DNA from: Candidatus Nanopelagicales bacterium | GTDB taxonomy: Bacteria > Actinomycetota > Actinomycetes > S36-B12 | NCBI GenBank assembly: GCA_036007925.1 | Contig: DASYOJ010000119.1 | Location: 1 to 40,464 of the forward strand | DNA length: 40,464 nucleotides | Reading direction: 5' to 3' | Shown here: positions 3,896-28,054 of the stretch, one piece after another | Layout: each line of letters starts with the position of its first letter | How positions within the stretch are numbered: position 1 is the first letter of the stretch | Notes under the pieces: model-generated | What the model was told of the DNA's origin: nothing | What the model saw: the letters and a program-made list of their open reading frames with translations, nothing else | Databases searched by the model: none | Translations under genes and position numbers: made by a program

Positions 3896-4023
3896 GGTGG
3901 CTGTTCTCCTTTTCGTTTCCCGAGATCGGGGGTGTGTTCGTGGTCTTTCGTGGGTGGTGCTGAAGTCAGGTAAGTAAGTGTGCCCCAAGGATCACAACTC
4001 ATGCAAATCGAGAGTCATAACCT

Positions 4024-9266: not shown

Positions 9267-10204
9267 GTCGCGAACTGCCCCATCCGCACGTAGATAAGCC
9301 GATCGGGATCCTGCGATTCGGTGCGTCCGTGCGCGGTTGTCGTGTTGTTGACCGCGAGGATCTCCCCCGGCTGCCAATCCACTCGCTGCTCCAGAGCTTC
9401 ACCGGCTGCGTAGACGGCGTAGACGATCTGCTCGGGAACACGCTCACCCTCGGGAGTGCGGATAACGATCGGCGGAGTGCGTCCTGACTCCTCGTGTAGG
9501 ACATCACCCGCCGTCCCAGCATCGGCGATCTGTTCACCGAACCACACCGGCAGCAGGCTGCTGAGCAGCCGCTCGGTTCCGTCGACACCGGCGACGATCG
9601 CGCTAGTCCGATATTGAGTGGTCACCACATCAGACTCGCGGTTGTACGTCATGGTGGTGTTGTTGGCCTGACAGATGCGATCCACCTCGTCGAGATCCTC
9701 GGTCATGAACGCCTGCCGCCAATCGGATCCTTCGAGTCGACGGTGGTAGACGAGATCATTCGCCCGCAGGTACTCGCGCACTTCCTCGGGCAGTGCTGCC
9801 AACAACTCGGCGCCATCGCACACGGTCGTCTCGCCACCTCCTCCCGCGGGCGGCACCTGGCAGTAGAACCACAAGACCTGTGGTCGCTCCTGGAAGTAGT
9901 ACATCTCCCCGTGCAGTGGAACCGGGAACGTCTGCGTGGATCCCGTTGCTGTCAGGATCGACGATTCGGTGTCGACCGTGGCTCGGTCGAGGGACCCAAA
10001 CCGGAACCCACCACCGCGGTAGTCGTGCCAGTCGGCGCAGATGGCATCGCTGATGGACACGAAATCATCGAGCGACGCATCGAACCCGCGGATCGCAACG
10101 CTTCCGGCGGTACGCAGCGCTCGGGCCACCTCCTGCGGATCGATGTCCGCGAACGACGAATCGTCGGACTCCTTCCTGATGGTCACGAGTGTGTCAGTGG
10201 TCAT
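9263..10204 (-). CDS. TauD/TfdA-family Fe(II)/2-oxoglutarate dioxygenase
   Basis: PLHGEMYY (HxE), GGGETTVCDG and TTAHGR (distal His plus Arg). About 313 aa from the ATG at 10204, which forms an ATGA overlap with the PKS stop. Confidence 0.78.
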   Translation of the reverse strand: MTTDTLVTIRKESDDSSFADIDPQEVARALRTAGSVAIRGFDASLDDFVSISDAICADWHDYRGGGFRFGSLDRATVDTESSILTATGSTQTFPVPLHGEMYYFQERPQVLWFYCQVPPAGGGGETTVCDGAELLAALPEEVREYLRANDLVYHRRLEGSDWRQAFMTEDLDEVDRICQANNTTMTYNRESDVVTTQYRTSAIVAGVDGTERLLSSLLPVWFGEQIADAGTAGDVLHEESGRTPPIVIRTPEGERVPEQIVYAVYAAGEALEQRVDWQPGEILAVNNTTTAHGRTESQDPDRLIYVRMGQFAT

Positions 10205-13200
10205 GTTTGATCCCTTCGCTCGTAACAGATTCCCAATACCGCCCCCGGGGGCCGCAAGAGCATCACCGGCCACAACGTGCTCGCATCGTCGGGTCCAGCC
10301 ACGATCAGCGAGTGCTTCCAGGGATCGCGCGCCATCACCGGCCAGCGGCGGATGTTTCCGCCGAGTCCAGTTCCCACCGCCTTCGCGGCTGCTTCCTTCG
10401 CAACGAGCACTTCGATGGTTCGGGTGACTCCCGATTCGACCATCTCGCTCTCCCGCTCCGTCAGGGCGCGGTCGATCGCGGCTGTATCGCGATCGCTGGC
10501 CTCGATATCAATACCTAGTACCGCTCCAGGACGGGCTGCACCCGCCACGATCATGGACTTGCTGTGGGTCAAGGACACCACCGGGACCCCACCGATCGAT
10601 TCCAGCGGCGGGCAATGCACGTAGGGCGCACCTTCCGTGGTCGTCAGGATCTCGACGTCGGCAGGTTGTAGATCCACTCCGTGGTGATGCAAAACCCACG
10701 CCCGCACCGCATCCTTCATGGCGATTCGGCCCAGCAACCATTCGATCCGTCGGGCTGGCTGCGCCCGCATTCCGTACCAGGAGCGCCGTTCACCGGCGGT
10801 CAGTGATACGTGCGCAAGGACACGCGACCAGATCCCGTACCCCGAAACCAGGAAGTCCGGTTGCACCTCGGTGATGGCCCGCAACGTGACCGGAGGTGGC
10901 CCCACCGGCCAATCGACGCTGAGCATCTCGCGTGCCGGATTCAACAGGTACATCAAGAAACGGGTCGGGAACGCGAAGACCCGTTGCCGTAGACCAACGA
11001 ATCGGGCCACAACGCTTCCGGATCCATCGATGATGTCGATGTCCGCGCACGTGCCGACATCGTCGCTTTCGCGGATACGCACCTCGAACCGAACGGGTGT
11101 GCCCTCAGGGATCAGCGGACCGTAGACCTCGTACGCCTCCGCGAAGTAGGGGAATGCGCCCACGGTCTGTGCGTTGTGCTCGTTGGCCCAAAAGGACACG
11201 AGCTGGCCGCAGGTATCGGCAAGGAACGGATCCATCTCCATGCGGGGACGCAGTGAGTAATCGGGGTGCAGATCCACCCGACGACGACGTCCCCGGGCCC
11301 TCACACGATCCCCTGTCACCTCGTCCACCACTTCCACGGCCCGGAAGGCCGGGCCGTGGAAGAGGCCGGAGTACAGACCCCGCGCCGGGCCTTCGGACCA
11401 ATCATCCGAAGCTCCCGGGGGCGCTGGCAGATAGCGATCGGCGAGCACCACCTGCGCTTCGAAGGCCACGTACTCCGGACCGGCATCCGAGGGATCCGCC
11501 GGTGCGATATGCGGATCGCGGATCACCACCACCCGAACGTCCACGAGATCTTCCCCGGATTGCGTCGCTTCGATTCGGACGGTGGCCTCACCTGCATCGA
11601 GGGCGACCCAGCGGTGAGCGCGCATGTTGCGCACCTGCGTGCAGACCAGGTGATCACCCACAAGATCGCGGGCTGCTTGGGCCACCATCTCCATGCTCGC
11701 GGTGAAGGGGACCACTGCCAACGGTGTCAATGACGAATCGCGCTGTGAGACCACACCACCGATCGCGTGGTGGGCGACGGCGGGATCGGTATCGGAACGG
11801 AAGACCTTGATGTGCGTCGATGAATGAGCCGTGCGCTCCACGCACTCACCGAGTATCCATTCGCGATCGCTGCGGCTCTCTTCGAACAACTCCTCCCCGA
11901 CGATCGCACGCACGGCCGCCGATCCCATCACTGTCTCCTGGGCCTGAACGAACTGACGCATGAGCGTCAGATGGGTCTCCAATGCATGGGCGTGATCACC
12001 GGAACTCGCGCGGCGCGCGATCGGTTCCCCGATGCTTGGCTCCAACTCCAGCAGGTCCACCGGGTCTTCGATCCGGTCCCCGAGAGCGCCGCGGATGCGG
12101 TGCAGCCACGTGACATCGACATCCAGGCCGTGGATCCACAGCGCCGCGAGCGTACGCAGGGAGGTGGTGAGTGTCCCGGCCGCAGAGTCCATGGATAGAA
12201 CAAGAACACCCGTTCCACGCAACACGTCGGTGGAACATGCGCTGAGCATCGTGCCCGGGCCTACTTCCACGAGGCACGTCAATGCCTGTTCTTCGACCAT
12301 CCGGGCGACCGTCGCGGCGAAGTCGACTGGCTTCCACCATTGCTCTGCGAGCAGATCACGGATTGAGTCGGCATCGGCGTCGACCCGTTCCCGGGTGGAA
12401 CACGAGTACCAGGGGAGTCGCGCACGGCGGACGTCGATGTCCTGGTACGCCTCGCGCATCATCTCGGCGCGAGGGGTGAACGCTTCGGTGTGGTAGGCCA
12501 ACGTGAACGGTAGTTCCCCGATCAGTGTCCCCGGAGCGCGCACTGCGGCCAGGAATTCCTCTCGATGCTCGTCGGCAACCCAGACCACGCAGACGTTCGG
12601 TGCGTTTATGTTCGTGATGACGGCCGTGGGTGTCTGTTCGACCACGCTGCGGACGTCTTCAACCGCTCGACCATTGATGGCGAATGTGGCACCGGGCGGC
12701 AGCGGGAATCTCTCGGCAGCGGCAACTTGGACTTCGGTAACCCGCGCGATCGCGGGCATCAACGCATCGGTGCGCATTCCGCTGACCGCACCGCTGATCA
12801 CACCGGCGGCGAATTCCCCACTCGATTGGCCGAGCACCGCCGATGGCGCTACTCCTAGCCGGGCGAGGGTGTCTGCGGATGCCACGCTCGAAACGGCGAG
12901 GCTCTGCGTCCCACCGAACACGCCCGATAGTTCCGACGGATCGGTGGGTGCCAGCGGTTGCGACCACATCTTGGTGGTCATCGGCTGCACGTCCGACGCA
13001 ACCAGAGTGGAATCGAGTTCGACGAACCAATCCTCCACCGATGGCAGGCAGGCTGCGAGGTCCTGGAACATGCCCGGACGCTGGGAACCCTCCCCGGGAC
13101 AAAGGAAACCCACCTTCGGATGCTCGACTGGTACCCCCAAGACGGTGCCGTCGGGGCTGCGGAGTCGGTCCTTCCCGCCATTGATCGCGGTAATGATCCG

Positions 13201-14631
13201 ATCGATCCGGGCCACTGCCTCATCAGCCGACGCAGCTACCAAGCCGGCCCGATGCTCGGAATTCAACGCCGGACGCTTCGACGCGACAGTCGACAACTGC
13301 ACGCCGTCGAGAAGTTCGTCTCGAGCCGCGCTCAGTGACTGGCGAAGCGTTTCGAGATCCGAGCCGCCGAACAGAAGTACTTCGACCGGCCAGTGGGCTG
13401 GAGCGGGTCGGGATTCGCGTCGCGACTCTTCGATGACCACATGCGAATTCGCTCCACCGAAGGCGACGGTGTTGACGCCCATGCGCCGCACGCCACTGCG
13501 TAGGGGCACGGGCGTGAGGGTGGTGGCCGCGACCTGCTCGCTGTTCATCTCGATGCGACGCCGGGGTCCGGTTCCGACTGACGGGGTGATCACCCCGTAG
13601 TGCACGCTCAAGATGGCCTTCATCAATCCGCCCATGCCGCCAGCGGCCAGGGCGTGACCCAAAAGCCCCTTCACCGAACCCACGAGCCAGGGTTGCTCGC
13701 CGCGTAACCGCTCCAGCGTTCGCCACTCGGAACGATCACCGATGTCCGTTCCGATGGCGTGAGCCTCGACTGCGGAGATGTCGTCGGGCCCGAGTCCGCC
13801 GATGCGCCAGGCTTGCTCGATCGCACTGGCCAAGCCCTCGGGCCGAGAAGTCAACAAACCCAAGCTGCGCCCGTCGCTGGATTGACCGACCGCGCGGATG
13901 TCGGCGTATGACTCACCCGCACGGATGTCCGTCGTGCGCTTGAGGACGAGGAAACCAACACCTTCACCGATGAGAGTGCCCACGGCATCGGACATGAAGG
14001 GACGGCATTCATCATCCGCCAACATGTCCACGGCCGCGAAGGACTCTTGGACACCGCGGTCCAACCACGGTCCGACCGCACCCACCAAAACCGCATCGAC
14101 CGTACCCGCGGCCAGCATCAGCCGGCCGGTCTCCACGGCAGCCACGGCCGAAGAGCACGCAGCATCCACCACCTGCTGCGGACCGTGCAGATCCAACTCC
14201 GACGCGATCCGTCCGGCCAGCAGATTGGGGTGAATCGAGGTCACCAGATCGCTGTCCATCTGGTGACCGTGGGCCCATGCTTGTTGCGGACGGCCCAACA
14301 GGGTGGAAGTGCCGACCAGCACAGCGCACGAGCGCCGCAACTGCTCGTCCAGGCCCGCATCGCGAACCGCCCGACGTGCCACATCGACCGCTATCAAGTG
14401 CCACGGCTCACCCACGCGCAGTACCGACGGCGCCGGGAGCGATTCGCGATCCATGACCAACGGTGCGAACCCGCCGAATCGCGGACCCGCGCTTTCCGCG
14501 CGGAGGGTGGGCGCCTGGGACGTCTGCGGCACTCCTCCGACGAGCACCGACCAAAGCCGGTCGAGGTCCGGCGCACCGGGGAAGGTCGCAGCCATGCCCA
14601 CAACGCTCGTCGTGGTGTGCGGATTCGTCAT
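10201..14631 (-). CDS. Iterative type I PKS/PUFA-synthase-like protein B: KS-AT-DH-PPTase
   Basis: KS motifs DAACSS, EAHAIGTDIGD and KGLLGHALAAGG. AT motif GQSSGEF. DH motifs AHHAIGGVV..LAVVP, LFHGPAFR and DTCGQL. C-terminal PPTase motifs WLLGRIAMKDA, LGIDIE and VAKEAAAKA. ATG at 14631 forms an ATGA overlap with protein A's stop. Confidence 0.9.
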   Translation of the reverse strand: MTNPHTTTSVVGMAATFPGAPDLDRLWSVLVGGVPQTSQAPTLRAESAGPRFGGFAPLVMDRESLPAPSVLRVGEPWHLIAVDVARRAVRDAGLDEQLRRSCAVLVGTSTLLGRPQQAWAHGHQMDSDLVTSIHPNLLAGRIASELDLHGPQQVVDAACSSAVAAVETGRLMLAAGTVDAVLVGAVGPWLDRGVQESFAAVDMLADDECRPFMSDAVGTLIGEGVGFLVLKRTTDIRAGESYADIRAVGQSSDGRSLGLLTSRPEGLASAIEQAWRIGGLGPDDISAVEAHAIGTDIGDRSEWRTLERLRGEQPWLVGSVKGLLGHALAAGGMGGLMKAILSVHYGVITPSVGTGPRRRIEMNSEQVAATTLTPVPLRSGVRRMGVNTVAFGGANSHVVIEESRRESRPAPAHWPVEVLLFGGSDLETLRQSLSAARDELLDGVQLSTVASKRPALNSEHRAGLVAASADEAVARIDRIITAINGGKDRLRSPDGTVLGVPVEHPKVGFLCPGEGSQRPGMFQDLAACLPSVEDWFVELDSTLVASDVQPMTTKMWSQPLAPTDPSELSGVFGGTQSLAVSSVASADTLARLGVAPSAVLGQSSGEFAAGVISGAVSGMRTDALMPAIARVTEVQVAAAERFPLPPGATFAINGRAVEDVRSVVEQTPTAVITNINAPNVCVVWVADEHREEFLAAVRAPGTLIGELPFTLAYHTEAFTPRAEMMREAYQDIDVRRARLPWYSCSTRERVDADADSIRDLLAEQWWKPVDFAATVARMVEEQALTCLVEVGPGTMLSACSTDVLRGTGVLVLSMDSAAGTLTTSLRTLAALWIHGLDVDVTWLHRIRGALGDRIEDPVDLLELEPSIGEPIARRASSGDHAHALETHLTLMRQFVQAQETVMGSAAVRAIVGEELFEESRSDREWILGECVERTAHSSTHIKVFRSDTDPAVAHHAIGGVVSQRDSSLTPLAVVPFTASMEMVAQAARDLVGDHLVCTQVRNMRAHRWVALDAGEATVRIEATQSGEDLVDVRVVVIRDPHIAPADPSDAGPEYVAFEAQVVLADRYLPAPPGASDDWSEGPARGLYSGLFHGPAFRAVEVVDEVTGDRVRARGRRRRVDLHPDYSLRPRMEMDPFLADTCGQLVSFWANEHNAQTVGAFPYFAEAYEVYGPLIPEGTPVRFEVRIRESDDVGTCADIDIIDGSGSVVARFVGLRQRVFAFPTRFLMYLLNPAREMLSVDWPVGPPPVTLRAITEVQPDFLVSGYGIWSRVLAHVSLTAGERRSWYGMRAQPARRIEWLLGRIAMKDAVRAWVLHHHGVDLQPADVEILTTTEGAPYVHCPPLESIGGVPVVSLTHSKSMIVAGAARPGAVLGIDIEASDRDTAAIDRALTERESEMVESGVTRTIEVLVAKEAAAKAVGTGLGGNIRRWPVMARDPWKHSLIVAGPDDASTLWPVMLLRPPGAVLGICYERRDQT
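10231..10878 (-). other. Protein B integrated Sfp-type 4'-phosphopantetheinyl transferase domain (approximate)
   Basis: SLTHS, LGIDIE and LVAKEAAAKAVG ((F/W)xxKEAxxKA), plus the N-terminal pseudo-repeat WLLGRIAMKDAV. Confidence 0.8.
10966..11868 (-). other. Protein B PKS-type double-hotdog dehydratase domain (approximate)
   Basis: HHAIGG...P (HxxxGxxxxP-like), GLFHGPAFR (YGPxF-like) and DPFLADTCGQL (DxxxQ). Confidence 0.7.
12241..13119 (-). other. Protein B acyltransferase domain (approximate)
   Basis: FLCPGEGSQ...GQSSGEFAAG nucleophile elbow and LAYHTEAF. Confidence 0.75.
13426..14610 (-). other. Protein B ketosynthase domain (approximate)
   Basis: Active-site Cys in VVDAACSS. Both His motifs are present but deviant (HAIGT instead of HGTGT). 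Confidence 0.8.
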
Positions 14632-17600
14632 CTCGTCCACGGCCCGTCTCCGATCACGATGTCGACGAAACCCGGATCCACTGCAGCCGATGCCGCCTCG
14701 ATAACGAAAGCACGCGCTCCAACTGTCGGCTCGATGACATGGATCCCGCGCTCGCGCAGTAGATCAGCGACGACTTCGCTGACCATGCCCTGCAGGCCGG
14801 TTCCGAACCACGGTCCCCATTGGATGGCGCGCACTCCCGTTACAGGCCAACGCTCGGCCCAACTGGCGGCAAGGACAGTCATGGCCTCATTGGCCGCTGC
14901 GTACGCGGACTGCGCGGGGTTACCGAAGGCTCCCGTCACGCTGCCGAAAACCACCATCCAGGACGGAATATTCTCCGCCCGTGCCAGGGACCGGCATACG
15001 TTGTCCAGGCCGAGCACCTTGGTCTCGATCACCGCGCGAGCATCGGTGAGGTCGAGTTCGACCAGCGGTGCATCCCGCACGATTCCCGATCCGAAGACAA
15101 CGCCGTCAATGCGACCGTGCTCGGTTAGCACCGCATCGATCACCGAATCGACTTGCGCGATATCGCGGACATCCGCCGGCAGCGCTTGCCAACCCTCGGG
15201 CAACTCCCATTCCGCAGCCGATCTGCCGACCACGATCACGGTGCAATCCGGCAGGGCTTCCACTGCGGCACGTGTGATGCCCCGAGCGCCGCCGAAGGCA
15301 AGCACTACGTTCCCCCGAAGCACCGACAGGTCGACGTCACTCACCACCTGCTCGGCGAGGCGCATGTCGATCGAACGAAGCCCCGTCTCCTCGGAAATGC
15401 GGAGTCTGGTGGTCGCATTCTCGCCTCGCTCTGCGGCTACACAGCGGGCGGCGGCGGCGACAGTCCGCACCGGGCCTACCGCCCCTTCGATCACCGACAG
15501 GTCGGACGGCGAGGTTTGCCACCGGGAGAGGGCGTCCATCGCCGATTCGATGAGCACGGCTGCGGCCTTGCTGTGATCGTCAGCGTGTACCTCGCTGGTA
15601 CAGAACGCTTCGCCAGCGACCACCGGCACGTCGACCCACGTGCGCACCCGACGAGGAACCTCCACTTCATCGCCGGAAGATGCTCGTGCTTCGCTGCCGT
15701 CTTCTTGCAGAGCTACGACGATCTCGCGAACGGTGCGCAACCGACTCAAGTCCACGCCCTCGCGCCGCTCGATGCCCAGCCGTTCACGCAGCATGGACAA
15801 GATCTCCACGCGCTTGATGGAATCCACCCCGAGTTCGGATTCCAGGTCCATGTCCGCTCCGATCACACCCGGATCGAACCCGGTGCGATCGCTGATGAGT
15901 GCTACGAGGACTTCCTGGATGTCGGCAGGAGCGCTCGAGTCCGGCATCGACGCGGCGGCAACCGGCTCATCGCGCTTGGGCTCCACGAGAACCTCACGCT
16001 GCGCAACCCCGGGAGTGAGCCGCGGCGTGGGTGGAGTGATGCGTGGGCGGCGAACACCGCCGGATGTCTGGCCGAGGGCCTGGTCCATCACCTGCTCGTG
16101 AACCCGCAGGAAGTCTTGCATCGTGCGCTGGAACTCCACGACCGCATCGCTAGAGCCGATGTTCGTCGCTGCAAGCACCTGCCCGGCGGTCTGCGCCGTC
16201 AGCATCGGCTCCCGGCCGTCGTAATCGCCATCCATCCGACCGCGACGTACGCCTCCACCATCGACGAACCAGGTGGTGTCGTCGGTGCCACGCAGCGCGT
16301 CTTCACCGGGCACCGGGAGTCGACCCTCGAACAGTGCCTGCACGCTGTCCACCGCACCGAGCGTCCACAACTCGCCGATCGCATCGAGGACACCGGACAT
16401 CGGGCGCCCGGGTCGTTCCAGCGGCACGACGCGGGCGTTCGGATCGATCTGTGTGATCAACGACGACGCAGTCGAACCGGGCCCCATTTCGACGAAGACC
16501 GATACCCCTGCCTCGACCGCCCGTTGGACTTGCTCCACGAATCTCACCGGCTGCATCAGGTGGTCGGACATCCGCTGGCGAATCTCTTCGACGCTCGCCG
16601 GGTACGACGCACCATCGGCATTACCGATGACCGTGATCGACGGAGGGGCGAGCCGATAGCCGGCGATTGCGCCCGTCAACGGGCCGATCGCATCGGTCAT
16701 CAATGCCGAATGGAAGGCACCGCCAACGGGAAGGACCACCGCCGATGCTCCAGTGTCCGACGCACGACGCGCAATGTCCTCGACATCAGCGCGGGCTCCG
16801 GAGACCACCATTTGGCGGGGGGCGTTGAAGCACGCCACCGTCGCTTCAGTTCCTGACACCAATTCGGCGGCCGTGTCTGCATCGATCTCAAGGGCCGCCA
16901 TTGTGCCGCGGCCGTCGTCGCTCGCGGCCATTGCGGCGCCGCGCACGCGCGTTAGATCGACCAGGTCCTCGCGACCCAAGACTCCAGCACGGTGCAGCGC
17001 CATGAACTCGCCGTAGGAATGACCGAAGGCAACCGTTGGACGAACACCCAACGAGTCCAGCAAGTCCGCCAAGCCCATGCCGAGCGCAGCGAGGGCGCTT
17101 TGCGCCATCCGGGTATCGGCGATCCTGGAGCGCTGCGCGTCGGCCTCGTGATCGGATCGCGCGCGGAACGGATAGATGGTTTCGATGAGGTTGTAGGGCA
17201 GTTCATCACCGATAAGCGCATCGACCAGCGCAAGTGTCCGGCGAAGGTCCGGAAGATAGACCGAGGCCTCGCGCAGGCTATTGATCCGTTGCGCGGCCTG
17301 TCCCGGGAAGATCTCGGCGACGTTCGGAGGTGTGGTCACCTCGACGAGGTCGCTGTAGTCGTCTTCCTTCCATCGGGTTGCACATTCGCGCAGTTGCCCT
17401 GCCGCATCGAGCGGATCGAGCATCACGAGCGCGAAGCGCCACGGCCCACTCGCAGCGCGCGCCGCACCGTGGGCGACGTTTCGAGGAATGCTGCCGCGGA
17501 TCTCCAACTCCGCCGCCAACCGTTCGGCCTGCTGCGCGGCATCACTCGGCGTACTGGCTCCGATCACCAGCAACTCGGCTGGCCAGCGCTGTGCACCGAC

Positions 17601-20600
17601 AGCCGCGCCATCAGCTGATTCCAAGACCACGTGGGTGTTGGTTCCACCGAAACCAAAGGCGCTGACCGCGGCGAAGCGCGCCGGATCGAGCCACGGCACG
17701 GACTTGTCGTACAGGACCACCGAGCCGGCCTCGTCCCGAAGCGAGTCGATAGGTGCCTGGACGCTCGGCTGCCCTGGTCGTACCCCGTGATGCAAGGCCA
17801 TGGCCGCCTTCATCAGGCCCAGCACCCCGGCACCAGCCTTCGCGTGACCCATCTGTGCCTTGATCGAACCGACCGAACACGATGTGGACGACAACCCACG
17901 AACCTCACTGATCGTGGTGATCTCCGTTCGATCACCGACAACCGTCCCGGTGCCGTGCGCTTCATAGAGCCCCACCTGTGCAGGCTCGACATCGCAACTG
18001 TCATAGGCACGGCGCAGCGCGAGTTGCTGACCGGAGCTTTGTGGAGCAGTCAGGCTCAAGCCGCGACCATCCGAACTCGAGCCACTACCGCGGATGACCG
18101 CGTAGATGCGATCCCCATCTCGCCTGGCGTCCTCGAGGCGCTTGAGCACGAGAATTCCCACCGCTTCGCCGATCACGATGCCATCAGCGGACTCATCGAA
18201 CACATGGGCTCGATCTCTCGGTGACAACGCGTGGCTTGCGGCAAACGACAAGTACACGCGCGGCGCCATCGCGGTATCCGCGCCGCCGGTGATGACGACA
18301 TCGGTCCGACCGGTTTCCAACTCACGGATAGCAGCCTCGACCGCAGCTAAGGACGATGCGCACGCCGAATCGACGGTGTGATTCGGCCCCTTGAAGTCGA
18401 AGCGGTTGGCGATGCGTCCGGTCGTTACGTTGTTCAAGAAGCCGGGGAAGGACTCTTCGGTCCAACTCGGGAGTCTGCTCCATGCTTGTTCCTCCACGGC
18501 TGCACTGACACTGGAAAGCATCGCCCGTGCGGCGTACCCCTCGCCGATATCGCCACTGCTCGAGGACATTCCGACGATCACCCCGACTCGGGATCGATCG
18601 ACGCGACTGGCGTCGAACCCGGCGTCGGCCAAGGCTCGACGTGTTACCTCCAGGGCGATCAACTGTGCCGGTTCGATGTGCGCAAGGGCCGTGGGCGGGG
18701 TGCCAAAGCGCATGGGGTCGAAGGGGATCGGATCGATGAAGCCGCCATGAACGGCCACCGTCGGATCCGGGGCTGCCGGATCAGGATCGAGTACCCGCGC
18801 TGGATCGAATCGCTCGGGGGGAATCGGTCGAGTGGCCACCCGCTGCTGCACCACGGTGTCCCAGAAACCAGCAAGATCACTGGAATCGGGAGCTACGACG
18901 GACATCCCGACGATGGCCACCGGGACCGACTTGATGGCATCTGCGCGATGTGGCGCTTTCGTATCCCAGGTCGCATCGATCACCTCCCGGCCTCCGGCTA
19001 GGACGTCTTCGTGCAGCGCAGCGATGTTGGTCACGTGCGCGTGCATCGTCGCAACATCCCCGAGCATGTACATGCCTTCACGCAACTGCCGATCGCGGTC
19101 GACCGAGACAACCGCCTCCCCCTCACGGATCTCGGCGCGGCTTGCCATGCGCAGCCGTCCGAGGGTGAGGGCTTCGAGGTGACTCGATCGGGTTTCCGGA
19201 TCCACACCGGTCAGTTCGCGAGCTCGTGCTTCGAACTCCGAAACGAAACCGCTCATCGCAACTCGCGTGGAGTGGCCCACCGCGGTGGTGACCGTGCTCG
19301 TGCGATCGCACGACAACGCAACATCTTGGAACAATTGAGGAATCGCCCCACTGCTGACCGCTTCCTCAGTGAACAAGTACGCGGTTCCCATCAGCAAGCC
19401 GACGGACACTCGATCGAGGAGGCCGCCGAGTTCCCAGGATGCGAGCGTGGCAGCCGCCGCCGAACTCACCGAATCGTGGATGCCCCCTGCAAGGAAGACC
19501 GAGGCCTGCGCGGACTCATCTGCTCGGAGTAGATCGGCGATCTCATGGAGCGCCGACTGCCACAAGACCGCACTCGAGAGCGGGCCGACATGGCCGCCGC
19601 ACTCGTACCCTTCGAGGACGAAGCGTCGAACCCCCGCTTTCCACAGCAAAGACACGATCCGTGCAGTTGGAGCGTGCGCATAGGTGATGATCCCGTGCGA
19701 TTCGAGATCGAGCACCTGATCGGGGCGGGCGCCGGCAACCACCGCAACCGAAGGCCGGGTACGCAGCACCGCTTCATGTTGCGGCTGCCAGATGTCCTGC
19801 GGCGCGAAGCCGAGCATGCCAACACCCCACGCGCGATCGGCGAGTTCCGCGCTCGTCTCGCTGAGTACGTCATTTGCTGCCGGGCCCCGCTTGAGAGCAA
19901 GGGCCACGAGCGGCAACGCACCTTCCTGCGCCACCGCACTCGCGAATCCCGGGACATCGCTGACTCTGGTCATCGGCCCTTGAACGAGCGGTGCCCCAAG
20001 GCCTAGTTCCCCGCACAGCGGCGAACCACTTCCGAGCAGACTCTCGGCGCGCGCCGCAAGCGCCGCTTCGGGATCGAGCCGGTAGCCCGACAGCACCGTA
20101 GATAGCGGCCGATCGACGTTCTGCCACGCGATCGCCAGCCCCTGACCCACGGGAATGAGATCGGAGAAAACATCCCGCCAACCCCACGGCAAGTCCTCAC
20201 TTCCACGATCGAAATCCGCCACCAGCGATGCTTGGACCTCCTGGGCAACGGGCAGGTTTCCCCGCAGCAGGAAACGCACTTGCCTGTCTGCTGGTCCGAG
20301 CGCCACCGCTTCGGTTCCATCAAGGTCGCGCACGGTACTGCGTAGCCCGGTGATCCGCGCTTGGCTTGTCAACACCAACTCATCGCGCAACACCACACCA
20401 GCAGCACCTGCAGTTCGCAGTGCTGCGGCAATGGACGGACTGATCGCACCGAAGGCGAGCACCTCACGTGCCCCTACTTTGCGCGCTTGCTGTAGGAGGA
20501 TCGCGGTAGATGTCGATCCGATCGCTCCGCCGGATTCCGACCCGCGCACAACCACGTGATCGTCGCTCGCGAACAACTCGACGATGCGCTGCGCATCGGT

Positions 20601-20936
20601 GACTTCGAGCCATGCCTGCGCACCAGTCGAAGCGAGTTGCTCGCGGATCGACATCCAATCGTCAACAGGATCAGCCCACGAATCGCTCACGATCACGCTC
20701 ACGCCCGGAGCAGCCTCTGGCTGAATCTGTGTCCACTGCGATGGCGTCACTCGGAGAACGAAGCGATCGCACTGCTTGCTCATCAATCGGATGTCGATGA
20801 GGCGATCACGGATCGCGGTGTTCGCCAGATCGAGGCCCGGTGTCACCTCTGCCGACGAGCACGAGCGCACCCACTCCTGGATTCGGATGACGTCCCCCGG
20901 CGGCGAATCGGGAACGCGTAGCGCAACGGTGATCAC
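14628..20936 (-). CDS. PUFA-synthase-like type I PKS protein A: degenerate NMO-like domain, PfaD-like ER, KS, AT, ACP, KR
   Basis: 2102 aa. ER motifs LVQGPMTRVSD, LEGYECGGHVG and FLAGGI. KS motifs VDSACASS, YEAHGTGT and IKAQMGHAKAGAG. AT motifs GHSYGEF and GAFHS. ACP motif LGVDSIKRVEIL. KR motifs FGGARGITRA and S...YAAAN. GTGA overlap with the GT stop at 20933-20936. Confidence 0.93.
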   Translation of the reverse strand: MITVALRVPDSPPGDVIRIQEWVRSCSSAEVTPGLDLANTAIRDRLIDIRLMSKQCDRFVLRVTPSQWTQIQPEAAPGVSVIVSDSWADPVDDWMSIREQLASTGAQAWLEVTDAQRIVELFASDDHVVVRGSESGGAIGSTSTAILLQQARKVGAREVLAFGAISPSIAAALRTAGAAGVVLRDELVLTSQARITGLRSTVRDLDGTEAVALGPADRQVRFLLRGNLPVAQEVQASLVADFDRGSEDLPWGWRDVFSDLIPVGQGLAIAWQNVDRPLSTVLSGYRLDPEAALAARAESLLGSGSPLCGELGLGAPLVQGPMTRVSDVPGFASAVAQEGALPLVALALKRGPAANDVLSETSAELADRAWGVGMLGFAPQDIWQPQHEAVLRTRPSVAVVAGARPDQVLDLESHGIITYAHAPTARIVSLLWKAGVRRFVLEGYECGGHVGPLSSAVLWQSALHEIADLLRADESAQASVFLAGGIHDSVSSAAAATLASWELGGLLDRVSVGLLMGTAYLFTEEAVSSGAIPQLFQDVALSCDRTSTVTTAVGHSTRVAMSGFVSEFEARARELTGVDPETRSSHLEALTLGRLRMASRAEIREGEAVVSVDRDRQLREGMYMLGDVATMHAHVTNIAALHEDVLAGGREVIDATWDTKAPHRADAIKSVPVAIVGMSVVAPDSSDLAGFWDTVVQQRVATRPIPPERFDPARVLDPDPAAPDPTVAVHGGFIDPIPFDPMRFGTPPTALAHIEPAQLIALEVTRRALADAGFDASRVDRSRVGVIVGMSSSSGDIGEGYAARAMLSSVSAAVEEQAWSRLPSWTEESFPGFLNNVTTGRIANRFDFKGPNHTVDSACASSLAAVEAAIRELETGRTDVVITGGADTAMAPRVYLSFAASHALSPRDRAHVFDESADGIVIGEAVGILVLKRLEDARRDGDRIYAVIRGSGSSSDGRGLSLTAPQSSGQQLALRRAYDSCDVEPAQVGLYEAHGTGTVVGDRTEITTISEVRGLSSTSCSVGSIKAQMGHAKAGAGVLGLMKAAMALHHGVRPGQPSVQAPIDSLRDEAGSVVLYDKSVPWLDPARFAAVSAFGFGGTNTHVVLESADGAAVGAQRWPAELLVIGASTPSDAAQQAERLAAELEIRGSIPRNVAHGAARAASGPWRFALVMLDPLDAAGQLRECATRWKEDDYSDLVEVTTPPNVAEIFPGQAAQRINSLREASVYLPDLRRTLALVDALIGDELPYNLIETIYPFRARSDHEADAQRSRIADTRMAQSALAALGMGLADLLDSLGVRPTVAFGHSYGEFMALHRAGVLGREDLVDLTRVRGAAMAASDDGRGTMAALEIDADTAAELVSGTEATVACFNAPRQMVVSGARADVEDIARRASDTGASAVVLPVGGAFHSALMTDAIGPLTGAIAGYRLAPPSITVIGNADGASYPASVEEIRQRMSDHLMQPVRFVEQVQRAVEAGVSVFVEMGPGSTASSLITQIDPNARVVPLERPGRPMSGVLDAIGELWTLGAVDSVQALFEGRLPVPGEDALRGTDDTTWFVDGGGVRRGRMDGDYDGREPMLTAQTAGQVLAATNIGSSDAVVEFQRTMQDFLRVHEQVMDQALGQTSGGVRRPRITPPTPRLTPGVAQREVLVEPKRDEPVAAASMPDSSAPADIQEVLVALISDRTGFDPGVIGADMDLESELGVDSIKRVEILSMLRERLGIERREGVDLSRLRTVREIVVALQEDGSEARASSGDEVEVPRRVRTWVDVPVVAGEAFCTSEVHADDHSKAAAVLIESAMDALSRWQTSPSDLSVIEGAVGPVRTVAAAARCVAAERGENATTRLRISEETGLRSIDMRLAEQVVSDVDLSVLRGNVVLAFGGARGITRAAVEALPDCTVIVVGRSAAEWELPEGWQALPADVRDIAQVDSVIDAVLTEHGRIDGVVFGSGIVRDAPLVELDLTDARAVIETKVLGLDNVCRSLARAENIPSWMVVFGSVTGAFGNPAQSAYAAANEAMTVLAASWAERWPVTGVRAIQWGPWFGTGLQGMVSEVVADLLRERGIHVIEPTVGARAFVIEAASAAVDPGFVDIVIGDGPWTR
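14802..15314 (-). other. Protein A ketoreductase catalytic subdomain (approximate)
   Basis: VVLAFGGARGITRA Rossmann motif and the S/Y/N triad in SVTGAFGNPAQSAYAAANEA. Confidence 0.8.
15702..15923 (-). other. Protein A single ACP domain, PUFA type (approximate)
   Basis: DLESELGVDSIKRVEILSML. The Ser codon is at 15819-15821. Confidence 0.85.
16437..17324 (-). other. Protein A acyltransferase domain (approximate)
   Basis: FPGQAAQ, GHSYGEF and GAFHS (malonyl-type HAFH-like). Confidence 0.85.
17619..18926 (-). other. Protein A ketosynthase domain (approximate)
   Basis: Catalytic Cys codon at 18360-18362 (DSACASS), plus HGTGT and GHAKAGAG. Confidence 0.88.
18987..20003 (-). other. Protein A enoyl reductase domain, PfaD/nitronate-monooxygenase type (approximate)
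   Basis: GPM motif, ECGGHVG, AGGI and MGTAYL. Confidence 0.8.
20352..20714 (-). other. Protein A degenerate NMO/TIM-barrel-like repeat (approximate)
   Basis: HVVVRGSESGGAIGSTSTAILLQQ ... VLAFGAISPSIAAALRTAGAAGVVL parallels the true ER segment RFVLEGYECGGHVGPLSSAVLWQS ... VFLAGGIHDS. It has Ala in place of the GGH histidine and FGA in place of AGG. Confidence 0.55.
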
Positions 20937-22213
20937 GCGACCGCCCTGCTTCCCAGCAGATGGTCGATGAGGAAGTCGGCCCCGGTGCGGACTCCGTCGT
21001 CGTGGGCGATGGATTCGGCGAGGTCCTGCGCGCGGGTGCGGTAACGGGGTTCATCCACGGCATTGCCGATCGCCCGAGCCAGCGATTCGACCTTCAGTTC
21101 CTGGATCGGGAGCGATGCCGGAGCTACCCCCAAGGCCAGTGCGCGATATCCCCAGAAGGGTTGATCCAGACAGAACGGAACCACTACCTGCGGAACGCCG
21201 GCGCGGTAGGCGGCAGCGCTGGATCCCACCCCGCCGTGGTGAACGAACGCCCGTACCCGCGGCAGCAGCCAGTCATGCGGGAGTCGGTCCACCACCAAGA
21301 CATCATCACCACGGACCGAATCCGGATCGAAGGCACCCCATCCACTCAACAGCAGGACTCGTTGACCGGCCCGACGGGCCGCCTCGACCACGGTGCGCGC
21401 CAACGCCCGCGGATCGGGAGCGACCACGCTGGAGAATCCGACCGCGATCGGCGCATCTCCTCCTTCGAGGAACTGCCTCACCTCATGCGGCGGTTGCCAG
21501 GATCCATCAGCGGGCAACCGCCAGTAGCCGACCACTCGCGCCTGCTGTGGCCAGTCCGGTGGTTGCGGAATCACCGCCGGGCTGACACCCACCACAGTGG
21601 GCAGTGCGCGCAAGCGTCGAAGGCTCTGCCTGCTGGATTGAATCGGCAGCCCAAGACGTTCGGCCTCCGCGCCCATGATCTGCACCATCGGACCCGAGCC
21701 CAGCCGATTCAGCGCATCAACAGCCCAGTGACCGAAACGCTGCCCCACGGGTCCGAACCGGGACCAACCCGGCTGCCACAGCGGAGGAAGGGTGCGCGTT
21801 GGCAGTGAGGGGAAGATCGAGGCGACCGCGGCTGGGATGTGCCGCTGATGGGCGAAAGGCGCAGCCCACGCCATCGAGTAGTCCAAGATCACCTTGTCCG
21901 AGGAGTCGATGCAATACGTGATCGCGCGCGCGAGTTGCGCGGTGAAATACGGAAGCGCCTTGCCGTAGAAGCCCGCGATGGAGCGAATGCCCCGGCCCGG
22001 CTCACGAAATGCTCGACCCTCGTCGGTTTCGTAGAAGGCTCGAGTGTCGCCCGGCATCGGGTAGAAGCTCATGCCGCGCTCGATGCACGATGCGCGGTAG
22101 TTCATGTGCGTAGCCATGCGAATGTCCACGCCTTGCTCGACCAGCCCGGTGGCCAACGCGATCATCGGCTCGACATCACCGTTGGTGCCGACGGTCAGCA
22201 CGGTGATCCGCAT
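20933..22213 (-). CDS. GT1-family glycosyltransferase (MGT/UDP-glycosyltransferase-like)
   Basis: 426 aa. MRITVLTVGTNGDVEP N-terminus and the donor-binding HHGGVGSSAAAYRAGVPQVVVPFCLDQPFWG. Confidence 0.88.
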   Translation of the reverse strand: MRITVLTVGTNGDVEPMIALATGLVEQGVDIRMATHMNYRASCIERGMSFYPMPGDTRAFYETDEGRAFREPGRGIRSIAGFYGKALPYFTAQLARAITYCIDSSDKVILDYSMAWAAPFAHQRHIPAAVASIFPSLPTRTLPPLWQPGWSRFGPVGQRFGHWAVDALNRLGSGPMVQIMGAEAERLGLPIQSSRQSLRRLRALPTVVGVSPAVIPQPPDWPQQARVVGYWRLPADGSWQPPHEVRQFLEGGDAPIAVGFSSVVAPDPRALARTVVEAARRAGQRVLLLSGWGAFDPDSVRGDDVLVVDRLPHDWLLPRVRAFVHHGGVGSSAAAYRAGVPQVVVPFCLDQPFWGYRALALGVAPASLPIQELKVESLARAIGNAVDEPRYRTRAQDLAESIAHDDGVRTGADFLIDHLLGSRAVA

Positions 22214-22225: not shown

Positions 22226-22504
22226 CTACGGCCGCGATGGCGCGGCGGCCAGCGCATCGACGATTTCGGCGACGCTGAGATCCGATCGCGCCTTGCCGTC
22301 AGCTTCCAACAGCGCCTCTAGTTCCAAGACGACATCCAACCGATCCTCGGTGGTGGCGAGAACGTGCACGATGTCCACGGAAGACAACTGCAGGTCAGCC
22401 ACCAGCAACGTGGTGTCAGTGATGTCGACGTCGTCGTAGCCCAAACCGAGGAGAGTCGCACCGAGCACATCGGTGAGTGTCTCGCGGGCGAGGTCGGCGC
22501 TCAC
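22226..22504 (-). CDS. Free-standing carrier protein (ACP-like, deviant SSV motif)
   Basis: 92 aa, acidic. ADLQLSSVDIVHVLATTEDRL sits at the helix II position where DSL is usual. GTGA overlap with the flippase stop. Confidence 0.65.
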   Translation of the reverse strand: MSADLARETLTDVLGATLLGLGYDDVDITDTTLLVADLQLSSVDIVHVLATTEDRLDVVLELEALLEADGKARSDLSVAEIVDALAAAPSRP

Positions 22505-24647: not shown

Positions 24648-25532
24648 TCAACCGCCGAGCAGGACATTCACCAACGCCGGCGCATCCTCCAATTGGGGCT
24701 GATGGCCTACCCCGGGTAGTTCGACCGTCCGCCCGTCCCATCGGGCGGCGAGCGCGCGCTGCTGCTCGACCGGCCAGCCGTCGTCGTTCGCACCCCACAC
24801 CACCCGAACGGGTGGACAGGGCTCCGGGGGCTCGATTGCGCCGGTTTCCAGCAGGATGCGGGCGCCTTCATCGAGGGCGACGGAGTCGTAATCGCGCCAC
24901 CGAGTTCGCTCGAATTCAGCCACGGCCGGGGCCACTTCGGGTGCGCCGGCCGCACGTTCGAGGCCGAGTTTGCGCTCCCACAGGGCGTCGCGGTCCACCC
25001 GTGGGAGAAAGCGACGGATCAACGGGAACACACCGGCGCGGTGCGCCGGCAGCGCCGCCGGGCCTGAACATAGGAGCGTGATCGAGGACCAATCGCACTC
25101 CCCAGCTGCCTGTTGGGCGATCAGGCCCCCGAGGGAGTGGCCGACGAGATGGCCCGGCCCCAACGACCATCGAGATCGCACCTGCTCGGCCACCGCACAA
25201 CAATCTGCAGCCATCGCCTCCAGGGAACAGTCCTGCGGAATCTTCGCCGAACTCGATTCGCGCTGCCCGCGAAGGTCGAACGCCACGGCGCCTCGCCCCT
25301 GCTCGGCAAGCAGCGACATCACCCCATAGAAGTCCTCTTTGCTCGACAGGTACCCCGGCACGAAGCAGAACCATTCGGCCGCTGCGTCCATACCGACGGC
25401 AGTAGCGGCTAACGGGCCGCGGGCGGTAGGGACGGACATCCGCACCGCACCGGCCGGCAGTCGCAGTCGGGCTTCGTGCGGGTCGGCGGCTTTGTGCACA
25501 TTCCCTCCAGGTGACGGAGGCTGCATGCCCAC
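24648..25532 (-). CDS. Alpha/beta-fold hydrolase
   Basis: 294 aa with nucleophile elbow VGHSLGG and FVPGY (HG-like oxyanion region). The exact start is uncertain. Confidence 0.8.
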   Translation of the reverse strand: MGMQPPSPGGNVHKAADPHEARLRLPAGAVRMSVPTARGPLAATAVGMDAAAEWFCFVPGYLSSKEDFYGVMSLLAEQGRGAVAFDLRGQRESSSAKIPQDCSLEAMAADCCAVAEQVRSRWSLGPGHLVGHSLGGLIAQQAAGECDWSSITLLCSGPAALPAHRAGVFPLIRRFLPRVDRDALWERKLGLERAAGAPEVAPAVAEFERTRWRDYDSVALDEGARILLETGAIEPPEPCPPVRVVWGANDDGWPVEQQRALAARWDGRTVELPGVGHQPQLEDAPALVNVLLGG

Positions 25533-25588: not shown

Positions 25589-27775
25589 GTGCCCTCAGCA
25601 GTTCAAACACCCATCATCATCGTGGCTGCGATCGCCACAATCGTCGCCTTCGCGCTCTTCTTCCGCACGCTCGCGGGGATGGTGCGCACCTACCGGGGCG
25701 GTCAGCCGGTGAGTCGCAGCGATAACCCAGGCCAGCGCACCGCCACCCTGCTGCGCGAAGTGCTCCTTGCCAGCCGCCTGAAGCAGCAGCCCGTCGGTGC
25801 GATCGTCGCCGGTGCGCACTGGATCGTGCTCGTCGCCTTCGGCGTCTTGTTCCTCACACTCATCACCGCGTACGGGCAGTTGCTCAACCCCGACTTCGCG
25901 CTGCCGATCATCGGTCACTTCCCACCCTTCAACTGGTTGGTCGAAGGTCTTGCGTGGTTGATGGTGATCTCGATCCTGTTCTTGATCATCACTCGTCTGC
26001 GTCAGCTGCCAAGCTCCCAGGGACGCAAGTCACGCTTCTTCGGTTCGACGATGTGGCAGGCCTACTACGTCGAGATCACCATCCTGCTCGTCGGTATCGC
26101 TGTCATCTCACTGCGCGCAATGGAATACGCGCTCGGTACCGAACAGGGCGAAACGTGGGCTACCGCCGCGAACTTCCCGTTCACCGCCTGGATCGGCTCG
26201 TCACTCACCGGGCTATCCATCAGTGCCCTCGAGACGGGCATCGTGATCATGGCGTTCGTCAAGATTGCGGTCTCTCTTGCGTGGCTGATCACCGTTGCTG
26301 TGCAACCGACTATGGGCGTTGCCTGGCACCGCTTCCTCGCGTTCTTCAACGTGTGGTTCCAGCGCAATGCCGACGGCAAGCCCGCACTGGGCCCGCTACT
26401 TCCCATCTCAATCAAGGGCGAACCAATCGATTTCGAGAACATTGACGATCTCGACGACGACGCCAGCTTGGGCGTCGGCACCATCGGGGATATGACGTGG
26501 AAAGCGTTGCTCGATGTCAACACCTGCACCGAATGCGGACGCTGCCAAAGCCAATGCCCGGCCTGGAACACCGAAAAGCCACTAAGCCCGAAACTTTTGA
26601 CCCTCGCGCTGCGCGAGCAATCCCATGCCGCCGCGCCGTGGTTGAAGGCGTCCGCCGATGCACGAGCAGACGTGCACGAAGACGTTCTCGGTATTGCCGA
26701 ACGGCAACTCATCGCCGAGGGTGAAGGCGATCCGTGGGCGCAGGCATCCGGCGGTGTGATGAGCCCGGACGTGTTGTGGAGTTGCACCACCTGCGGAGCC
26801 TGCGTTCAGCAGTGCCCGGTGGACATCGCGCATGTGGATCACATCGTGGACATGCGCCGCTATCAGGTATTGATGGCGAGCGAATTCCCCAACGAGCTCA
26901 ACGGTCTGTTCAAGAACATCGAAACCAAGGGCAACCCGTGGGGCATGAACTCCTCTGATCGCAATGCCTGGATCGAAGAGGTCGATTTCCCGGTCCGCGT
27001 TTTCGGCATGGAGGGCGAGGACGCCATCCCCGACGACGTCGAGTACCTGTTCTGGGTCGGCTGCGCCGGTGCCTACGAGGATCGCGCGAAGCAAACCACC
27101 AAGGCCGTTGCCGAGCTGTTGACCATGGCTGGCGTGGAATTCATGGTGCTCGGTGAAGGTGAGACGTGTAACGGTGATCCTGCACGCCGCGCCGGCAATG
27201 AGTTCCTCTTTCAGATGCAGGCGATGCAAAACGTGGAGGTGCTGAACGAGATCAAGTCCAAGCGGATCGTCGTCACCTGCCCGCACTGCCTGAACACCCT
27301 GGGACGGGAGTACCCACAGATGGGCGGCCACTACGAGGTGGTGCACCACACCGAACTGCTCAACAAACTCGTGGACGATGGCAAGCTCAAGACCGTTAAG
27401 CCGGTCGACCGCTCGGTCACTTACCACGATCCGTGCTACCTAGGACGCCACAACGACGTCATCACCCCGCCGCGCGAACTCATTGTCGATACCGGTGCAT
27501 CGCTCACCGAGATGCCCCGCCACGGCAAGCAATCGTTCTGCTGCGGTGCCGGTGGAGCGCGCATGTGGATGGAGGAGAAAATCGGAACGGCGGTCAACAA
27601 GACCCGTGCCGACGAAGCCATCGCCACCGGCGCGCAGACAGTTGCCGTCGCTTGCCCGTTCTGCTCGGTGATGATGAGCGATGCCGTCGCTTCCCGGCAG
27701 CAAGACGGTCAGGCCGAAGGGGTCGAGGTCACCGACATTGCACGGCTGATGTTGCAGGCGGCCAAGTCCGAGTAA
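25589..27775 (+). CDS. Membrane-anchored Fe-S oxidoreductase (HdrD/GlpC-like; mycobacterial Rv0338c-like)
   Basis: 728 aa. About 6 N-terminal TM helices, two 4Fe-4S motifs (CTECGRCQSQCP, CTTCGACVQQCP) and two Cys-rich CCG domains (CPHCLNTL, DPCYLGRH, FCCGAGG, CPFCSVM). GTG start. Confidence 0.88.
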   Translation: MPSAVQTPIIIVAAIATIVAFALFFRTLAGMVRTYRGGQPVSRSDNPGQRTATLLREVLLASRLKQQPVGAIVAGAHWIVLVAFGVLFLTLITAYGQLLNPDFALPIIGHFPPFNWLVEGLAWLMVISILFLIITRLRQLPSSQGRKSRFFGSTMWQAYYVEITILLVGIAVISLRAMEYALGTEQGETWATAANFPFTAWIGSSLTGLSISALETGIVIMAFVKIAVSLAWLITVAVQPTMGVAWHRFLAFFNVWFQRNADGKPALGPLLPISIKGEPIDFENIDDLDDDASLGVGTIGDMTWKALLDVNTCTECGRCQSQCPAWNTEKPLSPKLLTLALREQSHAAAPWLKASADARADVHEDVLGIAERQLIAEGEGDPWAQASGGVMSPDVLWSCTTCGACVQQCPVDIAHVDHIVDMRRYQVLMASEFPNELNGLFKNIETKGNPWGMNSSDRNAWIEEVDFPVRVFGMEGEDAIPDDVEYLFWVGCAGAYEDRAKQTTKAVAELLTMAGVEFMVLGEGETCNGDPARRAGNEFLFQMQAMQNVEVLNEIKSKRIVVTCPHCLNTLGREYPQMGGHYEVVHHTELLNKLVDDGKLKTVKPVDRSVTYHDPCYLGRHNDVITPPRELIVDTGASLTEMPRHGKQSFCCGAGGARMWMEEKIGTAVNKTRADEAIATGAQTVAVACPFCSVMMSDAVASRQQDGQAEGVEVTDIARLMLQAAKSE

Positions 27776-27782
27776 ATCGACT

Positions 27783-27801
27783 GGGATGCATATCGCATCC
27801 C
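27783..27801. terminator. Hairpin after the Fe-S gene, overlapping the toxin-antitoxin promoter region
   Basis: GGGATGC-atatc-GCATCCC, 8 nt after the TAA stop. It could act as a terminator and/or as the antitoxin operator. Confidence 0.45.
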
Positions 27802-27808
27802 ATCTTGG

Positions 27809-27814
27809 TATATT
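27809..27814 (+). promoter_or_regulatory. Candidate -10 hexamer TATATT for a leaderless antitoxin transcript
   Basis: TATATT ends 6 nt before the ATG at 27821, and there is no Shine-Dalgarno sequence between them. Confidence 0.4.
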
Positions 27815-27820
27815 TTGCTC

Positions 27821-28054
27821 ATGTCAACGCAGATTGCCGTCCGCCTGCCCGATCACATGGTTCACGAACTCGATCAACTCGTGGCCGACGGAACAGCACC
27901 GAGCCGAGCATCCGTCGTCGAAGAAGCTCTCCGCCGGGAACTGCGCCGCTACCTCGCCGAACGCGACCTGCGCATTTTGGAAGCAACCGGCGAGGACACC
28001 GACCTACTGGCGGCAACGGATTGGGCCATCAAGCACTTTTCGATGGACGACTAA
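27821..28054 (+). CDS. Ribbon-helix-helix (CopG/MazE-like) antitoxin
   Basis: MSTQIAVRLPDHMVHELDQLVADGTAPSRASVVEEALRRELR is an RHH signature. The TAATG overlap at 28052-28056 couples it to the toxin. Confidence 0.8.
   Translation: MSTQIAVRLPDHMVHELDQLVADGTAPSRASVVEEALRRELRRYLAERDLRILEATGEDTDLLAATDWAIKHFSMDD

Follow-up and report, generated by a model that had tools for sequence, protein, structure and literature searches.

Secondary-lipid synthases encoded by two adjacent genes, a fused pfaDA and a pfaBC homologue carrying a 4'-phosphopantetheinyl transferase (PPTase) domain, have been described and likened to the cluster of Renibacterium salmoninarum (PMC13291983). Shulse and Allen (2011) had placed the latter in type M, and Chryseobacterium/Chitinophaga and Gloeobacter in types N and O (PMC3098273); Aquimarina and Flavobacterium share this layout (PMC3098273, PMC13291983). 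In these clusters, the first gene encodes an enoyl reductase (ER) fused to ketosynthase (KS), acyltransferase (AT), acyl carrier protein (ACP) and ketoreductase (KR) domains, and the second a KS, an AT and a dehydratase (DH) with a C-terminal PPTase. Pfam searches recover this two-gene core, as synthase A and synthase B, in a contig of 40,464 nt from a Candidatus Nanopelagicales bacterium (DASYOJ010000119.1, assembly GCA_036007925.1), the whole of which is hereafter referred to as the window. A preliminary description of this DNA had not recognized the domain order of synthase A, which is in fact already on record. The approximately 300 residues that precede the ER in synthase A, or N-domain, are a different matter: they correspond to a conserved FabK barrel that is very probably dead, the ER that follows is itself FabK-type, and the corrected domain map reads pseudoER-ER-KS-AT-ACP-KR. 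The N-domain is apparently an undescribed, although widespread, pseudo-enzyme domain inside a known and uncharacterized class of secondary-lipid synthases. This does not make the locus a new kind of system, nor does it reveal the product. A second degenerate ER-like domain is not mentioned in the text, as distinct from the figures, of the two papers on the fused clusters (PMC13291983, PMC3098273); literature on tandem, pseudo or double ER domains, ER-KS-AT and pfaDA likewise gave no description of the N-domain in its text, a negative that does not extend to figures and leaves absence unproven.

Several described reductases provide points of comparison. The thraustochytrid synthase of polyunsaturated fatty acids (PUFAs) has, as does synthase A, two paralogous TIM-barrel ER units, ERb and ERc, one of which needs the other for folding and for loading of flavin mononucleotide (FMN) (PMC13311796). 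However, ERb and ERc are PfaD-type, both have the catalytic His and FMN, and they are carried by different polypeptides, whereas the units of synthase A are FabK-type and adjacent in cis, with one of them apparently dead. PfaD and the ERs of trans-AT polyketide synthases (PKSs) (4Z9R, 4YX6, 6LKC, 4CW5, 4Z38) belong to the same superfamily and do the same job, i.e., FMN-dependent enoyl reduction for a PUFA- or PKS-type synthase; where PfaD carries an N-terminal subdomain of about 80 aa, synthase A has a FabK-like domain of 305 aa. FabK (2Z6I, 5GVH, 7L00, 9PL0) is the nearest solved relative of both the N-domain and the ER, in sequence as well as in fold, lid subdomain included. It is a free-standing homodimer of about 315 aa, while synthase A has two tandem FabK-like units at the N-terminus of a megasynthase, the first of them without the Met, Asn, Glu, His, Gly-Thr and lid Met of FabK. 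Megasynthases do keep inactivated paralogues as structural partners, as in the pseudo-KR and pseudo-methyltransferase (pseudo-ME) of animal fatty acid synthase, the structural subdomain of PKS KRs, or the pairs formed by a KS and a chain-length factor (CLF); no described pseudo-domain of FabK/NMO fold was found.

The relationship of the N-domain to FabK is seen most clearly when its homologues are included. Taken alone, the N-terminal 310 aa of synthase A match the Pfam nitronate monooxygenase family (NMO, PF03060) with E=1.9e-4 and 21.4 bits, under the 28-bit gathering cut-off, and FabK structures with E=0.04-0.2; BLASTP of the N-terminus against the ER gives a 37-aa match (E=0.002). A profile built from 25 homologous N-domains, 21 of which individually match Pfam NMO (best E=1.3e-16), aligns with T. 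maritima FabK (5gvh) over residues 26-304 of 314 with E=1.1e-35, other FabK and NMO structures coming next, and hhalign relates it to the ER profile with a probability of 96.2% (E=2.1e-9, 212 columns). The AlphaFold2 model of the N-domain, with a predicted local distance difference test score (pLDDT) of 82 and a predicted template modeling score (pTM) of 0.83, contains eight alternating strand/helix units and a lid. Its top Foldseek matches are FabK structures from four species (among them 2z6i, 5gvj and 9pl0; E about 1e-10, template modeling score, or TM, about 0.66), with NMO among the top and FabX structures also among the matches. Residues 1-305 are a complete FabK/nitronate-monooxygenase-like TIM barrel with lid, homologous to PF03060 over the whole domain.

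The preliminary description had reported an NMO-like repeat at residues about 75-195, and the strings on which it relied are indeed present, ...AWLEVTDAQRIVELFASDDHVVVRGSESGGAIGSTSTAILLQQ...VLAFGAISPSIAAALRTAGAAGVVL at residues about 107-183 and ...RRFVLEGYECGGHVGPLSSAVLWQS...VFLAGGIHDS...LLMGTAYL at residues about 437-521. It had allowed for the possibility that HHpred or structure prediction would show no TIM-barrel/NMO similarity for residues 1-300, whereas profile search and AlphaFold2 model do show it. The similarity is decisive once relatives are considered, but the extent has to be revised, from a short repeat to an entire domain of 305 residues. Of note, a word-indexed search with the N-domain alone retrieves one protein, a fragment from a Candidatus Nanopelagicales metagenome-assembled genome that is 85% identical and represents the closest named relative, so that the family becomes visible only through an exhaustive HMMER search. 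The latter gave 387 matching cluster representatives (clusters at 50% identity); among the 150 matches listed, nearly all are near the N-terminus and many belong to proteins of 2000-3100 aa.

The loss of active-site residues was assessed by aligning 105 N-domains to the profile and mapping positions through its alignment with 5gvh, with FMN-contact and catalytic residues as listed in the structural study of scERb/ERc (PMC13311796). At the position of the catalytic His, the five commonest residues do not include His (R31/L21/W18/F10/K10), and the window has A138 (SESGGA). The motif I Met of FabK is Pro in 90% of the family; the corresponding part of the window protein, within its first 15 residues (VPDSPPG, with no Met after the start), is unaligned. 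The Asn of GVN gives way to Arg, Lys, Tyr or Cys (R62 in the window), the Glu before motif III to Lys in 80% or Arg in 13% (R131), the phosphate-binding Gly-Thr to Asp in 89% followed by Ser (R184-D185), and the lid Met276 to Pro in 78% (P262). The GG of motif III is kept in the family and in the window, and the xGGIG loop is kept in most relatives (G100/G93/I66/G88) and reads G-A-I-S in the window. The two changes pointed out early on, from GGH to GGA and from AGG to FGA, are real. Neither a motif III of the form xE(A/S)GGH with its catalytic His nor the full set of FMN contacts that a functional FabK-type ER should have (the Met of motif I, GVN Asn, Glu, GGI loop, Gly-Thr clamp, lid Met) is found in the N-domain, and the adjacent ER retains all of the listed residues except the Asn (M322, E442, H449, G484-G485, G517-T518, M624). 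Since the replacements are family-wide, loss of FMN-dependent reductase activity is strongly indicated, and the N-domain is very probably non-catalytic, as already supposed in the preliminary description of a degenerate NMO-like N-terminus; profile, Foldseek and residue survey agree on this, the cofactor and catalytic residues not having proved to be retained after alignment.

An alternative is that the N-domain is still an active flavoenzyme with non-canonical residues, either a second ER of other specificity or a FabX-like dehydrogenase/isomerase, which would fit with its full FabK-like fold and lid, with the retention of GxExGG and GGIG in most relatives, and with the FabX structures matched by Foldseek. 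We consider this very unlikely, because six independent positions for FMN binding or catalysis are replaced across the family, one of which puts an acidic Asp at the phosphate-binding Gly site, because the window copy is also devoid of GGIG, and because no FabX-like Cys cluster is apparent in the window N-domain sequence. The window copy deviates even at positions conserved among N-domains (D184R, Q186E, E192Q, and GGIG to GAIS), and its AAGVVLRDELVLTSQA stretch (residues 178-193) departs from the family consensus LD(S)Q...ES; judged from this alignment, it is an unusually degenerate member of the family.

As to the ER, its presence in cis within synthase A, noted in the preliminary description, is borne out by Pfam, whose best NMO-family match in the protein covers residues 383-573 (envelope about 310-660). 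The PfaD-type classification given to it there is, on the other hand, ruled out by NCBIfam, by the profile search against PDB and by Foldseek. PfaD enzymes are recognized by an N-terminal subdomain of about 80 aa, an insertion in motif I (G-AMAxG) and a lid Trp (PMC13311796). The ER of synthase A has none of these: its motif I reads QGPMTRV, without the insertion, and its lid residue is a Met (GMYMLGD), as in FabK, not a Trp. Against PDB, the ER profile matches FabK with E=1e-22, while PfaD chains and trans-AT PKS ERs are matched neither by this profile nor by that of the N-domain at E<=1. In NCBIfam, the ER matches FabK TIGR03151 only (2e-16), and no PfaD-family model at E<=0.001; as the score is far below the equivalog cut-off of 453 bits, the ER is FabK-like rather than a FabK orthologue. 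With TM-scores taken over target length, Foldseek gives 0.86-0.89 for FabK and 0.56-0.59 for trans-AT PKS ERs, versus about 0.5 for PfaD (4z9r/4yx6/6lkc, ranks 42-49, 11-12% identity). The ER also keeps all FabK hallmarks, namely QGxM (Q319-G-P-M322), ExGGH (E445-C-G-G-H449), AGGI (A483-G-G485), GT (G517-T518) and the lid Met (M624), and its nearest solved relatives are FabK enzymes; PfaD is not the closest in either sequence or structure.

A dead domain may simply be on its way out, and the N-domain is indeed the least conserved globular part of synthase A, with 84-89% identity versus 91-96% for ER and KS; the window copy is moreover only 21-28% identical to relatives. This could mean that what remains of a duplicated or fused ER is decaying and has no function. 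Such a reading is, however, contradicted by the ratio of nonsynonymous to synonymous substitution rates (dN/dS), which was calculated against an orthologue about 90% identical and amounts to 0.155 in the N-domain, 0.081 in the ER, 0.039 in the KS and 0.16-0.23 in three inter-domain regions. The 13 orthologues that are about 90% identical to synthase A all equal it in length.

Distribution adds to this. Species-representative genomes were scanned with two ER motifs derived from the alignment of N-domain and ER, so that loci were selected by their ER and not by their N-domain, and at least 591 loci were confirmed in Bacteroidota, Actinomycetota, Cyanobacteria, Myxococcota, Planctomycetota, Proteobacteria and other phyla. 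Wherever the ER motif QGPMTRV[ST]D was found in a single open reading frame (ORF), the N-domain lies upstream of the ER in that ORF (76/76 loci), which answers the suggestion, made in the preliminary description, that the N-terminal extension be sought in homologues. No member of this ER clade without an N-domain was found among these 76 loci and the stand-alone candidates. Candidates for stand-alone N-domain+ER proteins, i.e., entries of about 540 aa named 'nitronate monooxygenase' (P0062, P0067, P0069, P0070 and similar), were rejected: they consist of a full N-domain and an ER cut at profile position 150-200, and probably represent pieces of megasynthase genes that result from frameshifts or wrong gene calls. 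The N-domain is maintained, by purifying selection and in constant co-occurrence with this ER clade. With a domain kept in 76/76 loci across many phyla, many invariant residues and a confident fold prediction, decay is the least credible of all the explanations considered here, and can hardly apply.

What, then, could a dead barrel be kept for? Characterized TIM-barrel ERs act as dimers, FabK and PfaD being homodimers. In thraustochytrids, ERb and ERc form a heterodimer, and scERb is insoluble and without FMN unless paired with scERc; ER pairing has further been proposed to organize the megasynthase (PMC13311796), an idea that serves here as a model. By analogy, we propose that the N-domain is a non-catalytic intramolecular partner that replaces the second subunit of a FabK-type dimer, with a probability of roughly 0.6. 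The N-domain would derive from a FabK-like FMN TIM-barrel enzyme; its fold and lid have been retained, and the residues needed for holding FMN and for protonating the substrate are gone. Fused to a fully equipped FabK-type ER through a linker that is short, a few residues in the model, it would pack against the latter as an intramolecular pseudo-dimer, so that the partner that free TIM-barrel ERs obtain by dimerizing would be supplied within one chain; the dead barrel may thereby stabilize the ER and orient it beside the KS-AT-ACP-KR core. The AlphaFold2 model of residues 1-680 has a pTM of 0.88 and a pLDDT of 83, and a pTM this high, not to be expected of two freely hinged domains of about 330 aa, points to a defined arrangement of the two barrels. 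Of the roles initially envisaged for the N-domain, docking or dimerization, a dimerization or scaffold function is the best reading of this two-domain model. Construct boundaries for expression follow directly from the revised map, and the ER expressed alone may misfold, as does scERb without scERc; the idea that TIM-barrel ERs work as pairs would thus be extended.

Several points nonetheless weigh against the pseudo-dimer. The pTM is only an indirect measure of the packing between N-domain and ER. In addition, the KS already dimerizes such synthases, so that a partner in cis is not obviously needed by the ER, and no biochemically characterized member of the fused ER-KS synthase family was found. 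Importantly, the residues best conserved in the N-domain map to the C-terminal face of the barrel and to the lid, which in FabK accommodate FMN and substrate, and such conservation of the catalytic face in the model speaks for a re-purposed pocket more than for a pure scaffold. By position in the secondary structure of the model, they sit in the loops after strands and in the lid; they include near-invariant, family-specific residues (K131 80%, Q149 100%, D184 89%, Q186 91%, E192 96%, E209 95%, R221 99%, R225 94%, GQ 96-97%), as well as G132, E134, GG136-137, GG(I)G, G207 and G264-Q265. Some of them (R221, R225 and the GQ motif) are common to the FabK lid.

These residues, together with the GGIG phosphate-binding loop kept in most relatives, make a re-purposed binding module the main rival to the scaffold. 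The remodeled pocket would bind NAD(P)H, the phosphopantetheine arm, an acyl chain or ACP, and could control in which elongation cycles enoyl reduction takes place, or offer the substrate to the ER. The possibility is a serious one, but we hold it to be unlikely on balance, as the sequence allows no ligand to be inferred and the interface with the ER could be made of these very residues. Furthermore, the window protein has changed again at GGIG (GAIS) and at D184R, Q186E and E192Q, and yet is under purifying selection, which makes a pocket function doubtful, at least in this lineage. More speculative still is a combination of both ideas, to which we give little weight: pseudoER-ER would be an obligate intramolecular heterodimer, in which the new pocket of the dead barrel (K131/Q149/D184/Q186/E209/R221/R225/GQD) docks the ACP or acyl chain and thereby decides which cycles are enoyl-reduced. 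If this were true, the pocket would represent a built-in programming device of an iterative synthase, in hundreds of uncharacterized lipid clusters.

Regarding the origin of the pseudo-dimer proposed here, the N-domain profile scores 126 bits against FabK and 20-52 bits against the ER domains of the family, and the ER profile 84 bits against FabK and at most 19 bits against N-domains. Both domains score higher with FabK than with one another, a pattern compatible both with an old duplication and subsequent divergence and with a fusion of two separate FabK-like genes; on these scores, an internal duplication is no more than possible.

Table 1. Features of the synthase locus, in window coordinates; residue numbers refer to the protein concerned.
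Feature	Window positions	Strand	Residues	Description
Synthase A ORF	14628-20936	minus		Encodes 2102 aa
Pseudo-ER (N-domain)	20022..20936	minus	1-305	FabK/NMO-like TIM barrel and lid, without catalytic and FMN-binding residues
Degenerate motif III of pseudo-ER	20517..20546	minus	131-140	RGSESGGAIG; FabK equivalent EGxExGGHxG; Glu to Arg, catalytic His to Ala
FGAIS of pseudo-ER	20439..20453	minus	162-166	Stands where most relatives keep phosphate-binding xGGIG
AAGVVLRDELVLTSQA of pseudo-ER	20358..20405	minus	178-193	Counterpart of FabK GAxAVQMGTRF...ES; Gly-Thr phosphate clamp replaced
Catalytic FabK-type ER	18942..20021	minus	306-665	Pfam NMO, NCBIfam TIGR03151, profile against PDB, Foldseek, invariant residues
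Intact motif III of ER	19584..19613	minus	442-451	EGYECGGHVG, catalytic His449
KS	17766..18923	minus	672-1057	Pfam; DSACASS, EAHGTGT and GH motifs present
AT	16464..17135	minus	1268-1491	Pfam; GHSYG
Single ACP (PP-binding)	15717..15911	minus	1676-1740	Pfam
KR	14808..15311	minus	1876-2043	Pfam
Synthase B	10201..14640	minus		KS-AT-DH-PPTase, 1479 aa; Pfam; start overlaps synthase A end by 13 nt (14628-14640)
Glycosyltransferase	20933..22213	minus		GT28 / EryCIII-like; overlaps synthase A start
Tailoring genes	4119-10273 and 24648-25532	minus		TauD-like dioxygenase, HMGL-like (homocitrate/isopropylmalate-synthase-like), two methyltransferases, short-chain dehydrogenase/reductase (SDR), AMP-dependent ligase, alpha/beta-hydrolase

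The system around the N-domain consists of two proteins, pseudoER-ER-KS-AT-ACP-KR and KS-AT-DH-PPTase, which make up an iterative secondary-lipid/polyketide synthase (Table 1). Its relatives are found in Chryseobacterium, Chitinophaga, Gloeobacter, Lentzea and Micromonospora, i.e., in lineages related to those placed in types M, N and O, and the two-gene core is conserved, with a synthase B-like gene downstream in most of 80 related loci. The PPTase of synthase B (ACPS, residues 1375-1437) is encoded at the C-terminal end of the gene (window 10201-10900). Canonical Pfa synthases, in which PfaA carries four to six tandem ACPs, a KS is paired with a CLF and PfaD stands alone, are organized differently: here the ER is fused, a single ACP is present, in agreement with the preliminary description, and no CLF was detected, the only KS of synthase B having the Cys and both His motifs (DAACSS, EAHAIGT, GH) and therefore not being a chain-length factor. 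An ORF of 92 aa at window 22226-22504 (minus strand), between a MATE-like gene and the glycosyltransferase gene, contains DLQLSSVDIV and has a weak PP-binding match (E=0.011, below cut-off); a gene of 92 aa is also called at the corresponding position (1833-2111) of the orthologous contig L081. This ORF may encode an additional, discrete carrier protein, in which case the remark that only one ACP is present would need to be qualified.

The GTG start of synthase A and the stop codon of the glycosyltransferase gene located upstream overlap (GTGA, 20933-20936); this and the 13-nt overlap with synthase B suggest, as far as gene arrangement can tell, translational coupling of the three genes. The glycosyltransferase and the MATE-like transporter also count among the tailoring genes, and the product is probably glycosylated and otherwise tailored, and may be a glycolipid. 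The tailoring genes are absent beside the synthase A homologues of the 80 other related loci, some of them recur on L081, the contig of one close orthologue, and they gave no link to a known product.

Housekeeping genes are found on both sides of the cluster, those on the left being dnaK-grpE-dnaJ (window 238-3988, minus strand). On its right, a PemK/MazF-like toxin domain occupies residues 217-301 of an ORF at 27433-28362 (plus strand); the long N-terminal part of this ORF is probably spurious, as well as overlapping the end of a CCG/4Fe-4S oxidoreductase gene (25589-27775). Further on are a PAS-AraC regulator (29590-30279) and a bifunctional PutA, with proline dehydrogenase and aldehyde dehydrogenase (30648-34049, plus strand). 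Finally, genes for an SDR, an FAD_binding_4/ALO oxidase and a UbiA prenyltransferase-family protein stand in a row at window 36737-39782 (minus strand), a trio that, in keeping with an actinobacterial origin, we take to resemble the DprE2/DprE1/UbiA arabinan-precursor genes of Actinomycetota.

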